From a virus: DNA of 38,138 nucleotides. Where the stretch lies: the IMG/VR virus record IMGVR_UViG_3300027895_000005, positions 1-38,138 of that record. One strand, written 5' to 3'. The position numbers and the translations under genes were made by a program. Below the pieces are notes generated by a model that saw only the letters and a program-made list of their open reading frames with translations, was not told where the DNA came from and searched no databases. Of this stretch, positions 29,171-37,042 are shown one piece after another. Every line of letters begins with the position of its first letter. Position 1 is the first letter of the stretch.

Positions 29171-29577
29171 GCGCCGCGATAGCCGATCAGAAGCCGGACG
29201 CGGATGAGTTGTCCCACCGCCGTGGCCGCTTGCTGGGCGATGGCGCCGTACTGGTCGCCGTCGGAGCCGGCCGTGATTCCACGGCCGCTGCCGTCAGGCT
29301 TGAGATAGTCGAACGCAGACACCGCCGCGCCAGACTCCAGCCAGCACTCCTGAATGTGCTCGCCGGGGACGATCACCTCGATCTCGTTGATTCCGGCAAC
29401 ACCCGCGAAGCCGTCGTCAAGGAGGTTGATCGGCGGCTGGCGAACGCCCGGCTGGCTGATGCCGATGGGCCGGTCGCTGCCGACGCACTGGATCACGTAA
29501 CCGCCGCCCGTCTGCGTCGGGTCGCCCTTGACGAAGCGGCTTGGGTTTACCGACCCGTTACAGAGATATGAGGCCAT
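29167..29577 (-). CDS. Capsid decoration/cement protein (DUF2190-like)
   Basis: PSRFVK..RPIGIS..WLESGAAVSAFDYLKPDGSGRGI..GAIAQQAATAVGQLIRV. GGGAGG RBS. Confidence 0.8.
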   Translation of the reverse strand: MASYLCNGSVNPSRFVKGDPTQTGGGYVIQCVGSDRPIGISQPGVRQPPINLLDDGFAGVAGINEIEVIVPGEHIQECWLESGAAVSAFDYLKPDGSGRGITAGSDGDQYGAIAQQAATAVGQLIRVRLLIGYRGA

Positions 29578-29655
29578 TTCATCAACCTCCCGCCGCAAGA
29601 GAAATAGTGCGGCAACCAGGGTAGCTTTTTGGGGAGGCTGCGGTAAAATTGAGCA

Positions 29656-29687
29656 TGCCTACAAGGTGGTGGAACACCTTGCAGGCA
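29656..29687 (+). promoter_or_regulatory. Leader hairpin upstream of the endonuclease VII gene, just after a TAAAAT -10-like hexamer
   Basis: tgcct(a)caaggtg-gtggaa-caccttg(c)aggca. Confidence 0.65.
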
Positions 29688-29725
29688 CTGACCACATCGC
29701 AGCCTTGAGGAACAAGGACAACGCT

Positions 29726-30391
29726 ATGGCTAGCGCCAATTCTACCAACCAACCCGGCCTTTTCGACGCACACGCCCAAAAGAAGCGATGCACGCAGTGC
29801 GATGGCATCAAGCCGATGTCCGACTTTTACGTCAACAAGAAAATGCGTTGCGGACGGATGTCGGAGTGCAAGGAATGCACGAAACGGATGGGCCGTCGTA
29901 CGGCATACAAGCAAAAGGCAAGCGCTGAAGGAGTCATTGGGAAACCATGCTCCAAATGCGGAGAAACAAAACTGCTTGAGCAGTTCGGTAAGAGCCGTCA
30001 GTGCAAATTCGGCCGTTCTCCACGGTGTAAGGAATGCACGGCTGCCGAGGCCAGCGCAAAACATGCTCAGCAGAAGGCATGCCCGGAGTATCGCCGCAAA
30101 AGGCAAGAGTTTGACCGCATCCAGGGCATGAAACGATACGGCGTCAGTCCCGAACAGTACGCCGAAATGCACGCGTCGCAGGGTGGTCTTTGTGCGATTT
30201 GCGGCGAACCGGAAATGGCCCGGGTCAATCACACTCGCCAGGTTCGCAGACTGTGCATCGATCACGACCACTCCACCGGAAAGATTCGTTCCTTGCTCTG
30301 TTCGCGATGCAACCACGGCATCGGAAACTTCCGCGATGATCCCAAACGACTTGCTGCCGCCATTGCCTACCTGCAAAGGCATGCGAACTGA
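29726..30391 (+). CDS. Endonuclease VII-family (His-Me finger/HNH) homing-type endonuclease with two N-terminal Zn-finger repeats
   Basis: YGVSPEQY..QGGLCAICG..LCIDHDHSTGKIRSLLCSRCNHGIG, and KxCxxCxxxK...CKEC twice. Confidence 0.92.
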   Translation: MASANSTNQPGLFDAHAQKKRCTQCDGIKPMSDFYVNKKMRCGRMSECKECTKRMGRRTAYKQKASAEGVIGKPCSKCGETKLLEQFGKSRQCKFGRSPRCKECTAAEASAKHAQQKACPEYRRKRQEFDRIQGMKRYGVSPEQYAEMHASQGGLCAICGEPEMARVNHTRQVRRLCIDHDHSTGKIRSLLCSRCNHGIGNFRDDPKRLAAAIAYLQRHAN

Positions 30392-30395
30392 CTCG

Positions 30396-31121
30396 CTATC
30401 GCTGACCGTAGAAGCCGCGCACGAGCGACAACGTGTCCGCCGTGGTCGCGTTGGGGTTGAACACAACCAGCGGGTCGCCCGGGTGCAGGCCAGACCACAG
30501 CCCGCCCGTGTCGCTGTACTCGACCCGCGCCGCACTCGCTGGGATCGGGAACGTCGGCTGCAAGGCACCCGTGTTGGGGTCCGTGTAGCCCGTCTGGCCC
30601 ATGAAGTAGAGGATCGATTTGACCGATACGCCGCCCGTCGGCAGCGCAGTGACCGTGATCGCCCCGGCCGTATAAGCGCTCTGCGCCGTATCGAGCACCC
30701 AGGTCCCGTCTGCGGCCTGGTAGACGATGTAGTCGCCGCTCTGGATGGCCGAGTTCCCCGTGCGCGGGGCAGTCGATCCGTCGGCCAGCGGGTAGTTGAA
30801 GTTGGTCGCGTACAACCCTGGGTCGCCATTGATCGAGAGCGACGTGGCCGAAGCCAGAGCGTTGGCCGTGACCTTGACGCGATTGAGCGGCCGGAGAATC
30901 GTCAGAGCGTTGCCGTGGCCGCCAGCGTCCACGATGATGTGGTTGATGTGCGGCACGCCGTTTAGCGCCGGCATCGGGCCAGTGGGAGATCCCGGCAAAG
31001 AGGCTGTTCCCACCATGCCGTAGGGTTGGACGAGGATGGCGATGGCGGTTCCGAAAGCGTGCGTCTGTACGCCGACGCCGTTGAACTTGCCAAGGTCTTG
31101 CACGCCAGAACTTGTTGCCAT
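30396..31121 (-). CDS. Putative head-associated structural protein
   Basis: Gly/Thr/Ala-rich and beta-rich, located between the scaffold and decoration genes. GAGG RBS. Confidence 0.65.
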   Translation of the reverse strand: MATSSGVQDLGKFNGVGVQTHAFGTAIAILVQPYGMVGTASLPGSPTGPMPALNGVPHINHIIVDAGGHGNALTILRPLNRVKVTANALASATSLSINGDPGLYATNFNYPLADGSTAPRTGNSAIQSGDYIVYQAADGTWVLDTAQSAYTAGAITVTALPTGGVSVKSILYFMGQTGYTDPNTGALQPTFPIPASAARVEYSDTGGLWSGLHPGDPLVVFNPNATTADTLSLVRGFYGQR

Positions 31122-32676: not shown

Positions 32677-32850
32677 TCAGAACGGACCGGCAGCCTCATT
32701 CCACAAATCAATCAGTTTCCGGAGCGCCCTGAACCTTCTCCGCTCCTCCGATGGATCGAAGTCAGGGTGGGTGTAGGATAGGTAATCGAAGTATGCTTTT
32801 TCGGCGTCCAGCAGCGCGTCGTCTATATCCGCAAGAACCTTGTCCATCAT
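32677..32850 (-). CDS. 57-aa hypothetical protein, absent from the ORF track
   Basis: Translated by hand: MMDKVLADIDDALLDAEKAYFDYLSYTHPDFDPSEERRRFRALRKLIDLWNEAAGPF. ATGA overlap and GAGG RBS. Confidence 0.6.
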   Translation of the reverse strand: MMDKVLADIDDALLDAEKAYFDYLSYTHPDFDPSEERRRFRALRKLIDLWNEAAGPF

Positions 32851-33075: not shown

Positions 33076-33408
33076 TCAGAACGGTCCGGCAAATGGAATG
33101 TTGCTCCGGCGGATGTTCTCCCAGAACCACGTTCCCCGACTGCTGGCGGCCAGCATGCCGGTGAGATAGCTGATCGGGCAGTCGTACACGTAAAACTGCC
33201 CGCTCCCCAGGAACCGCACCCCCAGGCAACTCTTGACGCCCCGTTCGACGCTGGAGAAATACGCGACCCCGACGATGTTGGTGCTTCCCGTGACCGTCTT
33301 CCAGTTGTCGGGCTGCGAGAAGTAGAACATCGCCTGCGGCGGCGGCGTCCACCGGGGGCCGTTTGTGCCGAAGCCGAAGAACTTCTTGACCGCTTTGAAG
33401 AATCCCAC
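33076..33408 (-). CDS. KTSC-domain protein
   Basis: STNIVGVAY...LGVRFLGSGQFYVYDCP...MLAASSRGTWFWENIR. GGAGG RBS before the GTG. Confidence 0.82.
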   Translation of the reverse strand: MGFFKAVKKFFGFGTNGPRWTPPPQAMFYFSQPDNWKTVTGSTNIVGVAYFSSVERGVKSCLGVRFLGSGQFYVYDCPISYLTGMLAASSRGTWFWENIRRSNIPFAGPF

Positions 33409-33501
33409 TGTGGATGCCTCCCCAAATCGCATCGAACATGGGCGTCAGAGGGGATATGATGACGAGACGAGCAGCGGGAGAGCAAAGCAGAGGGACGCGA
33501 G

Positions 33502-34233
33502 ATGGCATCATTGCAGGCGGTTGCGCCGGTCAAGGTCACGCTGGAGGGTGGTGATCTGGGAGGAGTGAGAACCTTCACCCTCGCCGGGGCGGACGTGCAG
33601 ATCAATCCACGCTATCGAGACGTGATGGGCGGGAACGGCCTTCCCGTGGATCAGGAATATCGCGGTACGGATCTCGTCATCAGCGGGAGTGTCATCCCCT
33701 CGCAGGAGCAACTTGCCGCCGCCGTTCCCGCCGTCCGTCCGGAGATCGCCCTGGCACAAGCCGTGCTTCGTGCCGACTGGCTGGCGGCGTATGCGCTGCG
33801 GGACCTGCTGGCGGAAGCGCCGCCCGGGGAAGCGGCGTGGATTCCGCAGAAGCCGACGCGAGAATGCCTCTACTGCAAGACGACGGAGCAACTGCGAATA
33901 GGTTCCGATGTGGATGATCAGGCGATGAAGATTCGCTGCGCCCGTTGCCGTAGCGTCCACGCCTCCGCTCCGTTGCATCTGTTCTTGACGGCTGCCAGGG
34001 TGTGGGACAAGGCGGATCGCGCCGTTCGCACCTGGGTATTCAATGAGGCGCCGACGCTGCTCCAGTTGCTGTTTGACATGGGCTTCGCCAGTAACTGGAT
34101 AGCCCTGCTGCCGCCGGGAGTCGCGTGGCCAAGCTGGATGGCAGAAGGGTCGGGCAGCCCGAACGAGAAAGACATTGGCGAGGGATGGCGTGTCGTCCTC
34201 GGCTGGCCTGCCAGAGAGGAGGCCGACGTATGA
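33502..34233 (+). CDS. Mosaic hypothetical protein (tail-tube-like fragment, TIGR02996-like helix pair, Zn finger)
   Basis: GAGGGA RBS, CLYC...CARC, and first gene of the plus-strand cassette. Confidence 0.7.
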   Translation: MASLQAVAPVKVTLEGGDLGGVRTFTLAGADVQINPRYRDVMGGNGLPVDQEYRGTDLVISGSVIPSQEQLAAAVPAVRPEIALAQAVLRADWLAAYALRDLLAEAPPGEAAWIPQKPTRECLYCKTTEQLRIGSDVDDQAMKIRCARCRSVHASAPLHLFLTAARVWDKADRAVRTWVFNEAPTLLQLLFDMGFASNWIALLPPGVAWPSWMAEGSGSPNEKDIGEGWRVVLGWPAREEADV

Positions 34234-34829
34234 GCAACCGCACCACCACCAGACGCTGGCGCATCTACCATGTCCCGGAAGAGGCCGTCCTGTCGCTCTT
34301 CATCGGCCGGCGGACGCCCGAATGCCTCTACCTGCCTGTGCCGACGAACCTGCCGGCTGACGCCGTGGTGCGCGACGTCAAGCACTGCTGGGAGAACAAC
34401 ACCTTCGGCTTTCGCGTGGAAAGCGCGGAGTTCGACGTAGTTGCCGATGGGGACATGACGCCGACGGCCGGCTTGCTCGAATGGGAATCGCTCAAAGTGA
34501 TGCCGGACCCCGGGAGCGCAGACAACCCCATGCGCTACGACCTGCTGGCCGCGGCGATGGACGAGACACAGCACTTGCGTGGGATCTTCGGCGACCTGCG
34601 CAACGACAGTCCGGCGATCAAGGCGGCGTATGAGCAAGGCGTCCAGGAAGAAGGCGAGCGTGTGCTGGGACATCTCAGCGCAGCCATCGGGGACTGGAAG
34701 AAGAGCAACGACAGCGACAAGGGCATCGTCATTGCCGCGCTTTCCATGACGGCGTCCTGTATCACGCATCGAGGCATAACGCGAGAAGAAGCCTTGAGTA
34801 AGCTCGCCCCGTCAGCACGCAACCGGTGA
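34230..34829 (+). CDS. Hypothetical protein
   Basis: GGAGG RBS, ATGA coupling, and LPADAVV...FGFRVESAEFDVVADG. Confidence 0.75.
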   Translation: MSNRTTTRRWRIYHVPEEAVLSLFIGRRTPECLYLPVPTNLPADAVVRDVKHCWENNTFGFRVESAEFDVVADGDMTPTAGLLEWESLKVMPDPGSADNPMRYDLLAAAMDETQHLRGIFGDLRNDSPAIKAAYEQGVQEEGERVLGHLSAAIGDWKKSNDSDKGIVIAALSMTASCITHRGITREEALSKLAPSARNR

Positions 34830-34888
34830 AACGCGGCGATGGGCTTGCCAGACACCCTTTACGGTCTGCCGATCGTGGTGGAGGAACC

Positions 34889-35626
34889 GTGATCACTTTC
34901 GATGACCCCGTCCTCATCGCTGGCATGCAGTCGGAATCGCCCCCTGACATGCTCGTGGACTACCTGCAGGACGCTGGATGCGACCTGGGCAACCTGCTGG
35001 CGTTGTTCACAGGCAAGCCGCCACGCTGGGATCACCGCGCCGGGCAGGGCTTGCTGTGCCGCTGGCTGGAGGTGGTGGAAAGGGACAGGACGGTGCGGCG
35101 CACGAAGAAGGGGCCGATTCGCCCGGCTTATGCGGTGGTTGCCGCGATGGCGCCACGAACGCCGAAGCCTCCCGAAGGAGCATGGCGCGACCGCTTCAAT
35201 CGGGGGTATGACAACTTTGGCGAGGTGTCGGCGGATCGCAAGGCGTCGGCCGTGTTCGTCGGCTACCACGAGGCGGAACCTGACGGTTGGGGAATGAGGC
35301 CAGCGTCGCCTCACAGCCTCGCGCTCGACTGTCCCGCATGCCAGGAGAATAAGACGCCTGTTGCCAGGATTGGAACCGTCCCTCTGCTGTCGCAGGACTG
35401 CTACGGCCGCCCCGGGCATATTCTGGCCGGCGCCTGCCCGACGTGTGACACGCTCTTCTGGGTCGCCACGGACGTGCGCCCGGAGATGATCCCGTTCAAG
35501 CGGCGCATCCTGGCGCTGTTCCCTGACGTGATGTGTCCGGTGCTGTGGGCGGACAAGGTGAGGTTCGTCAAGGCGCCGGATCTGATCTCACCTGGAGAGG
35601 AGGAGAGGTTGCGATGGTTGCGATGA
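34889..35626 (+). CDS. Hypothetical protein with TIGR02996-like N-terminus and CxxC...CxxC
   Basis: GGAGGA RBS and GTG start, PPDMLVDYLQDAG, and CPAC/CPTC. Confidence 0.7.
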   Translation: MITFDDPVLIAGMQSESPPDMLVDYLQDAGCDLGNLLALFTGKPPRWDHRAGQGLLCRWLEVVERDRTVRRTKKGPIRPAYAVVAAMAPRTPKPPEGAWRDRFNRGYDNFGEVSADRKASAVFVGYHEAEPDGWGMRPASPHSLALDCPACQENKTPVARIGTVPLLSQDCYGRPGHILAGACPTCDTLFWVATDVRPEMIPFKRRILALFPDVMCPVLWADKVRFVKAPDLISPGEEERLRWLR

Positions 35627-36318
35627 TGCCGCTGCAACGTCCCGACGCCGTCCTGTCCGGCATGGTCGCCGACGCCTGCCGCGATCCCTCGCTCTGGCCG
35701 GTTGCCGTGGACTGGATGGTCGAGGAGAAGACGCCCGTCAGCGACGTGGCGCTGCTCTACGCTGGCTCGCCGCCCGATTATGTGGACGGCCTGCCGCAGA
35801 AGTGGCTGATTCAATGGATGGAGGCGACGGGGGAGAGAAGCCTCGAAGCGCGGTCGATGAAAATGATCGGGAAGTCACTTTGTGGGCAGGTGCCGGGGCA
35901 GATGCTGGACGATATATTCGACGGCCTTCCGGTTCGTCTGTTCTCTTCCGATGCGAGAAATAGTGTTGCGGCAGCGCTTCGCGCAATTAAACGAGGGACG
36001 CTAAACAGTCAACCGTTTCGGTCGCTGAGGTTCAGCCTGGGTGCGAGCATAGGCTTGCTGGACATCGAGCTTGACCGACGGTCAAGCAATGCCAGGCTCA
36101 AGGCGCTGTACGGTAGAGGCTTCCGCCGGGACATGCCTATCGAGGTATGGGAAGACCGCCCAAACCGCTGCATCCAGGTCAGGCAGAGGTTGACCGCCGT
36201 CGAACTGATCCCGCCCGAAGATCTGCGGAATCGGGATGTGCTTGTAATGGGCTCGTCGTGGGCAAACCTGATCCACCTGATTCATGGTCGCCGGCAACCG
36301 TCACTACCTCCCCCCTGA
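35614..36318 (+). CDS. Hypothetical protein with TIGR02996-like N-terminus
   Basis: GGAGGAGAGG RBS, overlap with the upstream stop, and DPSLWPVAVDWMVEE. The start is 35614 or 35623. Confidence 0.7.
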   Translation: MVAMMPLQRPDAVLSGMVADACRDPSLWPVAVDWMVEEKTPVSDVALLYAGSPPDYVDGLPQKWLIQWMEATGERSLEARSMKMIGKSLCGQVPGQMLDDIFDGLPVRLFSSDARNSVAAALRAIKRGTLNSQPFRSLRFSLGASIGLLDIELDRRSSNARLKALYGRGFRRDMPIEVWEDRPNRCIQVRQRLTAVELIPPEDLRNRDVLVMGSSWANLIHLIHGRRQPSLPPP

Positions 36319-36329
36319 GAGGCAATCAC

Positions 36330-36608
36330 ATGACCGAAAGCGAAGAACGCGCCTACCAGATGGGGCGCAAGGCGTTTGCCCGGACCATCCTCGCTGAGGC
36401 GGTCGCCGAGCTGGGGCACGGCCCAGAGCGTGACGTCGAATCGTGGCGTCTGGAGCGCGCCGACACGGTGGCGATGCTCCGATCCCTCTGCGAGACCTTC
36501 GGCGACAACGACTGGCCCGATAACCTGCATCTGGCCGATGTGATCGACAAGCACCTGGGGCGGCACCTGCACGCAGAGCGCCGGGACCGTTTGGCCGAAA
36601 GCGAGTAA
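36330..36608 (+). CDS. Hypothetical protein (FGDNDWPDNLHLADVIDKHL motif)
   Basis: GAGAGG RBS and a motif-like helical protein. Confidence 0.75.
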   Translation: MTESEERAYQMGRKAFARTILAEAVAELGHGPERDVESWRLERADTVAMLRSLCETFGDNDWPDNLHLADVIDKHLGRHLHAERRDRLAESE

Positions 36609-36671
36609 CGTTGCCATCCCTTAGCACCTTCGCCACACCTCGGCCATCAGGGAATCCAGGGTGATCCCCCA

Positions 36672-36833
36672 TTACAGTTCGGACTCTTCCCACTGGTCGG
36701 CGGGTATCGCCAGCGTCGTCGCCACGATCCGGCCGCGAGCCTCGACGACTACCTCGGCCGCACCGTCAGGCGTTTCCGGCATCACGGTGATGCACAGATC
36801 CAGCGGGCGGTGGGGAAGCGGGTGCGTTGGCAT
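36672..36833 (-). CDS. 53-aa hypothetical protein
   Basis: TAATG coupling and GGAGAGG RBS. Confidence 0.5.
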   Translation of the reverse strand: MPTHPLPHRPLDLCITVMPETPDGAAEVVVEARGRIVATTLAIPADQWEESEL

Positions 36834-37042
36834 TACTGGCCCTCTCCCGCAAACACCCGGAATGTCCCCGTGTAGAGGCAACGGGCATCATCATAGGTGA
36901 TCCTGGCTGACGCGGGAACGATCGAATGGCCGTTCTTTCTGGCGATATCCATTCTCGCGACAAGCTCAGCAGTCAGAGTTCCAAGGGCGTCGCCTGGCGC
37001 GAACTCGCTGACCGTGAGTGTAACCGTCACTTCCTCGCCCAT
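36833..37042 (-). CDS. 69-aa hypothetical protein (MGEEVTVTL...)
   Basis: GAGGGA RBS directly after the stop of the large upstream gene. Confidence 0.6.
   Translation of the reverse strand: MGEEVTVTLTVSEFAPGDALGTLTAELVARMDIARKNGHSIVPASARITYDDARCLYTGTFRVFAGEGQ

Follow-up and report, generated by a model that had tools for sequence, protein, structure and literature searches.

Structure of the g1-g5 cassette

The window analyzed here covers positions 1-38,138 of an IMG/VR virus record of 105,489 bases (IMGVR_UViG_3300027895_000005), which represents an uncultured soil phage. From the reading of the sequence and its list of open reading frames (ORFs), five co-directional plus-strand genes, designated g1 to g5, were recognized at 33502-36608. 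The region is a translationally coupled five-gene accessory cassette, reversed inside the minus-strand head block of the 105-kb phage. Two of its products, g3 and g4, belong to one protein family, and the N-terminal domain of this family appears to be a far-diverged form of TIGR02996, a domain of leucine-rich repeat (LRR) proteins from Gemmatales.

The cassette had been proposed in an earlier sequence-only reading as a coupled plus-strand unit with ribosome-binding sites (RBSs), and this was borne out by codon statistics, RBS positions and the gene call on a sister contig. Every cassette start has a purine-rich RBS 4-8 nt upstream; in the case of the GTG start of g3, the sequence GGAGGA ends four bases earlier. 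The last 13 nt of g3 are shared with the beginning of g4. The G+C content at third codon positions (GC3) of the five genes is 0.72-0.82, in line with confident phage genes, and their codon log-odds are all positive (+0.09 to +0.30 per codon), as in those genes. The minus-strand ORFs overlapping the cassette show log-odds from -0.52 to +0.06, and a candidate 5' extension of g3 to 34826 has poor codon statistics (log-odds -0.44). On the sister contig, which is 100% identical and comes from a soil metagenome, proteins of 243, 199, 245, 234 and 92 aa were called independently. Since the codon statistics and the call on the sister assembly agree, the plus-strand gene models are real.

Minus-strand genes of the head region flank the cassette, with a scaffold-like gene (PHROG 673) on one side, and a Mu-type portal gene and a gene with an ADP-ribosyltransferase (ART) domain on the other. 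The claim that the cassette interrupts the head region is therefore correct. The divergent gap upstream of g1 is the sole room for promoters in either direction. The hexamer TATGAT, which had been pointed out in the sequence-only reading, is indeed present there at 33455-33460, but no sigma-70-type promoter was found by a scan of the gap region. No convincing terminator was found by a scan of the gap downstream of g5, and Rfam and tRNA scans of the cassette region revealed nothing relevant.

The protein family of g3 and g4

Word-based homologue searches with g1, g3 and g4 returned only the query proteins. When g4 was used as the query of a full HMMER search, 1.84 billion representatives yielded 26 remote relatives of 100-400 aa (E-values from 1e-9 to 9e-4), nearly all of which match g4 by the N-terminal ~70 residues. 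They were aligned with g3 and g4 using MAFFT, and the resulting alignment of 28 members is designated A1. Three conserved blocks are seen in A1. Block 1 is an N-terminal helical domain, in which the Asp-Trp-Leu core precedes a Pro-Pro loop and, after it, a second helix with Trp-Leu. Block 2 is a basic Lys-Arg-Arg helix that opens a C-terminal alpha/beta module, and block 3 is a proline-rich strand motif close to the C-terminus. Blocks 1 and 2 are separated by a hypervariable middle, in which g3 has a CxxC...CxxC insert. Three columns are invariant, with Asp, Arg and Leu, and no catalytic-type conserved residue was found among the invariant columns.

A profile built only from the 26 external proteins recovered g4 with 127.1 bits (E-value 8.5e-38, profile positions 3-247 of 250) and g3 with 62.1 bits (E-value 6e-18, positions 3-169); block 3 of g3 was placed by MAFFT. 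The N-block profile without the window proteins scored 70.8 bits for g4 and 44.9 bits for g3. Because these profiles recover both proteins without any contribution from the window, g3 and g4 can be regarded as divergent members of one family. They share the C-terminal blocks 2 and 3, and thus they are not unrelated fusions, as had been supposed when each motif was assigned to a different unrelated or Zn-binding region. The identity between g3 and g4 is only ~20%, and both have nearer relatives among the outside members. A recent tandem duplication was considered and found no support: the tree is unresolved, and the pair is not grouped in any bootstrap tree. Judged from these alignments, g3 and g4 are two divergent paralogues in one undescribed phage protein family.

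Neither Pfam nor PHROGs contains the family, and no PDB match was obtained by sequence profile search. A typical family member and the phage's own TIGR02996 protein had no match in GenBank phages. Pattern scans of IMG/VR with g3 and two family alignments gave no confirmed relatives, and searches for g3 and g4 in four Gemmatales-type genomes returned only noise.

The AlphaFold2 model of g4, predicted with A1, has a pLDDT of 79.3 and a pTM of 0.75. It shows helices at residues 12-23, 25-37, 42-50, 62-72, 77-90, 95-103 and 112-130, and a small C-terminal alpha/beta module, the strands of which are at 139-147, 177-181 and 186-194. The three short predicted helices at residues 12-50 would be compatible with a TIGR02996-type domain. 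All matches of this model against PDB and BFVD with Foldseek had E-values >0.1, and the best Z in VIA-align was 5.5, where the guide value for noise is 8.

Table 1. Genes, protein features and gaps of the cassette, and the TIGR02996 genes elsewhere in the phage record
Feature	Position	Strand	Size or residues	Remarks
g1	33502-34233	+	243 aa	orphan
g1, motif of the sequence-only reading	33751-33816	+	residues 84-105	internal, not N-terminal
g1, zinc-ribbon-like CxxC...CxxC	33865-33948	+	residues 122-149	weak Pfam hints, E-value 0.01-0.03
g2	34230-34829	+	199 aa	orphan; start overlaps g1 stop
g3	34889-35626	+	245 aa	divergent member of the new family; GTG start
g3, N-terminal domain	34889-35080	+	residues 1-64	putative diverged TIGR02996-type helices, then family-specific second half
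g3, zinc-ribbon-like insert	35330-35446	+		CxxC, 31 residues, CxxC; in the hypervariable middle
g3, C-terminal blocks	block 2, 35495-35530; block 3, 35573-35599	+		from alignment A1
g4	35614-36318	+	234 aa	full-length member of the new family
g4, N-terminal domain	35635-35835	+	residues 8-74	TIGR02996 core aligned over the initial ~40 residues
g4, C-terminal alpha/beta module	35986-36222; block 2, 35986-36018; block 3, 36196-36222	+		
g5	36330-36608	+	92 aa	acidic helical orphan; final cassette gene
Divergent intergenic gap	33433-33501		69 bp	between the minus-strand 118-aa gene (start 33432) and g1
Convergent gap	36609-36671		63 bp	from g5 stop to the stop of the last minus-strand gene
TIGR02996 genes of the phage, outside the window	L061:3166-3954; L002:1009-1611; L061:1320-1733; L003:1381-1890	+		
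TIGR02996 gene of the phage, outside the window	L004:1093-2364	-		

Relationship of the N-terminal domain to TIGR02996

Two models of TIGR02996 were used: the curated NCBIfam model TIGR02996.1, whose cut-off is 29.05 bits, and an independent host profile of 33 TIGR02996 domains from four Gemmatales-type genomes. The family N-block aligned to the 33 host domains with an hhalign probability of 84% (score 29.2, 31 columns), with or without the window proteins, and the first half of the N-domain alone reached 87%. None of 300 column shuffles (mean 9.7, sd 2.5, maximum 23.0) attained the score of 29.2, and the reversed alignment used as a control scored 11.3. The register of this alignment is the one that had been drawn by eye in the sequence-only reading.

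The link is also seen in individual members. TIGR02996.1 recognizes three of the 28 family members (best E-value 1.2e-6), and it is the only family model matched by more than one of them. On the host profile, the scores of members grade at one fixed position from 27.6 (P0031), 16.8 (P0022), 16.0 (P0013), 12.5 and 10.7 bits down to about 0, with g3 and g4 at the far low end. The best-scoring member, P0031, is labelled in IMG as "uncharacterized protein (TIGR02996 family)". In a leave-one-out comparison, the C-terminal parts alone of three intermediates scored 58.6, 57.6 and 67.3 bits on the family profile, and the intermediates are thus true family members. Reciprocally, when the phage was searched with the family N-profile, g3 and g4 ranked first, followed by the phage's own TIGR02996 genes. 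Through these intermediates, profile comparison identifies the initial ~40 residues of block 1 as a far-diverged TIGR02996 "repeat-companion" domain, with convergence as a minor possibility.

The second half of the N-domain (residues 48-69 of g4, 35755-35820) also aligns weakly to the TIGR02996 core, with hhalign probabilities of 54-62%. The family N-domain may represent an internal duplication.

The relationship is visible at the family level only. The three peptides quoted in the sequence-only reading are present at residues 84-105 of g1, 9-30 of g3 and 17-38 of g4. None of the five cassette proteins was matched by TIGR02996.1 at an E-value of 10 or below. Over the whole phage record this model matched four places, two of them above the cut-off (61.7 and 29.9 bits), and all of them lie outside the window. 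The host profile, applied without filtering to the six-frame translation of the phage (1,291 ORFs), found five ORFs, which correspond to the four places of TIGR02996.1 and one more. The three weakest accepted TIGR02996 copies of the phage exceed all 1000 of their shuffles. Iteration of the host profile with the phage's own copies still brought in no cassette protein. Unlike the TIGR02996 proteins of hosts, g3 and g4 have no LRR or other repeats after the N-terminal domain.

Of the three TIGR02996-like domains that had been claimed, those of g3 and g4 are therefore upheld through their family (hhalign 84%, 0 of 300 shuffles), but that of g1 is at chance level. The profile check at relaxed thresholds that had been recommended with the claim gave no match for single sequences, and it gave the profile-profile match for the g3/g4 family.

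The orphan genes g1, g2 and g5

The only match of g1 in a search of 5.8 billion proteins was g1 itself. No relative of g1 was found in GenBank phages, and only noise was obtained in the four Gemmatales-type genomes. Its motif scored 3.3 bits on the family N-profile, a score equalled or exceeded by 51 of 1000 shuffles, and the hhalign probability against the g3/g4 family N-block was 0.16%. With P values of 0.05-0.12 against shuffles, the proposal that g1 carries a TIGR02996-like copy is not supported. Likeness of g1 to a tail-tube protein (BLASTP E-value 0.82) and to g3 (E-value 5) was unsupported. CxxC pairs are present in both g1 and g3, and their Pfam scores for Zn_ribbon_5 and zf-ChsH2 are 13-16.5 bits, compared with gathering thresholds of 23-29.

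The N-terminal ~100 aa of g2 resemble small beta-barrel hypothetical proteins of phages: the ESM Atlas model of g2 gave TM values of 0.66-0.74 by target against viral clusters. Direct scans of all five cassette proteins against NCBIfam, Pfam, PHROGs and PADLOC yielded nothing usable. No family match was found for g2 or g5 in NCBIfam, Pfam or PHROGs, and g2 had no match in GenBank phages. On the g3/g4 family profile, g1, g2 and g5 reach the shuffle level only. These three genes are orphans and not additional TIGR02996-type copies.

In g1 and g2, a 22-nt direct repeat with 86% identity (33852-33873 and 34310-34331) specifies an identical short peptide, Glu-Cys-Leu-Tyr, which may be due to chance.

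Distribution in phages and hosts

All six related contigs that were read bear phage genes, among them genes for terminase, portal and Mu-type capsid proteins. Three of the contigs (L065, L067 and L069) have a single family member between the large terminase gene, or a gene in its place, and the Mu-type portal gene. The member of L066 follows a small-terminase gene at a distance of 2 kb, that of L063 is surrounded by small early-type genes and is 10 kb away from the terminase gene, and the context of the L070 member is uninformative. Four of the six contigs also contain matches to the TIGR02996 profile, three of them strong. Among 301 sampled Planctomycetota genomes, the g3/g4 family showed one weak match only. 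So far the family appears to be phage-only, as every member with readable context is on a phage contig.

In L063 (9543-10004) and L069 (2980-3381), the gene directly upstream of the family member shows a weak TIGR02996-like match of 12.6-12.8 bits, an arrangement that echoes the pairing of g3 and g4.

TIGR02996 itself is abundant in the four Gemmatales-type genomes, with 26 to at least 126 copies per genome, and all five host TIGR02996 proteins sampled consist of the N-domain and LRRs. One of the host-type genomes has a tandem array of eight TIGR02996 matches in 12 kb (G001:C3:290056-302229). It is likely that Gemmata-like planctomycetes are the hosts of the phage. The five TIGR02996 genes of the phage outside the window (Table 1) have non-LRR bodies, and they score 72, 29, 14, 13 and 8 bits on the host profile. 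One of them, of 424 aa, adjoins the Mu-type portal gene, which is the slot held by the g3/g4 family in relatives of the phage.

Neighboring genes in the head region

A second plus-strand gene is found within the minus-strand head block. It lies at 29528-30391 of the window, belongs to the endonuclease VII/HNH type (PHROG 2633, E-value 8e-42), and is probably a homing endonuclease. A candidate 84-nt tRNA-Ala (tgc) was called by ARAGORN on the minus strand at 30442-30525, within a 241-aa ORF (30396-31121). Two adjacent minus-strand genes of 57 and 118 aa encode identical last four residues, and they share a 16-nt stretch over their stop codons in which 15 of 16 positions are identical (32677-32692 and 33076-33091).

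Downstream of g5, two small coupled minus-strand genes, at 36672-36836 (54 aa) and 36833-37042 (69 aa), close the upstream minus-strand block. They follow a long minus-strand gene with an open frame of 949 aa. The sister contig calls the small genes as 53 and 69 aa and the long gene as 927 aa. Because of the two small genes, an apparent 438-bp gap after g5 shrinks to 63 bp. IMG/VR pattern scans with the 489-aa flank gene and the 371-aa putative major capsid gene revealed no confirmed relatives.

Interpretation

As a whole, the locus is best read as an accessory cassette that includes members of a new phage family with a diverged TIGR02996-type N-domain, and this reading, in which an adaptor role is the part that we infer, is considered rather probable. 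The results speak to the identity and ancestry of g3 and g4, and any function given to them below is putative.

Several results weigh against this reading. With the host profile, g3 and g4 were absent even at an E-value of 100 or below, and g1 appeared at an E-value of 69 (1,291 ORFs). When the three quoted segments were compared with their own shuffles, 113, 129 and 118 of 1000 matched the real score (P ~0.12). The single-sequence hhalign probabilities of the segments were 0.8%, 0.3% and 0.2%, and these values fall inside the range given by 40 random ORFs (the comparison set was a 48-ORF sample). According to the sequence-only reading, its proposal would fall if the segments had no profile or structural similarity to one another or to TIGR02996, and because the direct tests alone are all negative, they would lead to that outcome by themselves. 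The family-level match spans ~31 columns around one Asp-Trp-Leu core and is thus short enough for convergence on a helical motif. The single-sequence model of g3 was unusable (pLDDT 36.6). No solved TIGR02996 structure was found in a search by sequence, and TIGR02996 was named in no paper of the literature library searched. Finally, no relatives of g1, g2 and g5 were found beside the family members in the six related contigs. The cassette is therefore not a conserved operon, and the five-gene unit is particular to this phage.

As for function, g3 and g4 are tentatively proposed to be non-enzymatic adaptors, whose handle may engage the partner of host TIGR02996-LRR proteins. The TIGR02996-type handle would bind whatever partner recognizes the corresponding handle on these host proteins, and g3 and g4 would then either compete with the host proteins or bring the phage C-terminal module to the partner. 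A broader version is unlikely. In it, TIGR02996 would be a docking handle common to a very large set of fast-evolving LRR recognition proteins in Gemmata-like bacteria, and the phages would join this handle to new bodies in whole sets of proteins that jam its partner or redirect it. If this were true, the phage proteins would parallel, in bacteria, the decoys by which viruses mimic host domains, a recognition system of the host that is so far undescribed would be indicated, and the g3/g4 family would be the most diverged of the phage proteins with such an architecture.

The position of family members offers another explanation, in which g3 and g4 are head-associated, either as helpers in assembly or packaging or as capsid cargo, and the N-domain serves to contact the portal or terminase end of the particle instead of a host partner. 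In three of the six related contigs the member lies, with tight spacing and in the orientation of both neighbors, between the large terminase, or its replacement, and the Mu-type portal, and in a fourth it is near the small-terminase gene. The phage of the window likewise has a Mu-type portal, its g3 and g4 are inside the head block, and this block already contains an effector-like protein, the one with the ART domain. However, none of the head genes is on the strand of g3 and g4, which hence are not co-transcribed with them, the L063 member is far from the terminase gene, and the g4 fold matches capsid proteins only weakly and in part (54-58 residues, with Z 5.0-5.5 against a noise guide of 8). 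A head-associated role is thus possible but doubtful. It is still less probable that the TIGR02996 likeness itself is a product of convergence or chance, i.e., that an unrelated helical N-domain happens to have one acidic Asp-Trp-Leu helix. Although the negative direct tests on g3 and g4, the short aligned region, and the unresolved tree with its very long branches could be explained in this way, the gradient of member scores at one fixed position, the recognition of three members by the curated model, the reciprocal top matches, and the failure of all column shuffles to attain the observed score argue against it.

The full model of the sequence-only reading, an anti-defence or decoy operon with three mimics (g1, g3 and g4) that jam a host TIGR02996 sensing system, is also very unlikely. 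It gains from the diverged TIGR02996-type domain of g3 and g4, from a cassette position that is typical of accessory genes, and from the very large and partly tandem TIGR02996-LRR families of the hosts, as expected of fast-evolving recognition proteins. Against it, the g1 motif is at chance level, relatives are entirely lacking for g1, g2 and g5, and the five genes were never found together again. In addition, no TIGR02996-based host sensing system is documented in the literature library searched, and none of the five cassette proteins matched the PADLOC defence models at an E-value of 0.1 or below. This model survives only in a reduced form, with two related genes instead of three and with no conserved five-gene operon.

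TIGR02996 is among the most expanded domains of Gemmata-like planctomycetes, and the phages appear to keep a dedicated phage-only family with a diverged copy as well as plainer copies. The g3/g4 family would be a concrete entry point to TIGR02996: the proteins are small and soluble, one confident model is available, and they could be used as bait for the binding partner.

Comparison with known systems

Viral proteins resembling CARD, pyrin or TIR proteins, and F-box proteins of viruses and pathogens, place a docking domain of the host on a different body. With these single-domain mimics, g3 and g4 would have only the logic in common, and no relation in sequence or fold is known. The portal- or MuF-linked packaged effectors are similar to the g3/g4 family in their position by terminase and portal, as seen in three related contigs. 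They differ in that g3 and g4 are not fused to a portal or MuF protein, are on the opposite strand in this phage, and have no detected toxin or enzyme domain.

The TIGR02996 (rpt_mate_G_obs) domain of Gemmatales LRR proteins, like the N-domain of g3 and g4, comprises ~40 N-terminal residues with a helix-loop-helix pattern around an Asp-Trp-Leu-x-acidic core. The host proteins differ from g3 and g4 in three points. One is the score, as g3 and g4 are far below the curated cut-off. Another is the body: LRRs or other repeats follow the domain in the host proteins, whereas in g3 and g4 it continues into a second half specific to the family, and then come a variable middle and an alpha/beta module. 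The third is the occurrence, as members of the g3/g4 family were found only on phage contigs. The phage's own TIGR02996 genes differ by their direct TIGR02996 scores of 8-72 bits and are without the family blocks 2 and 3, and they share with g3 and g4 the combination of a phage-borne domain and a non-LRR body.

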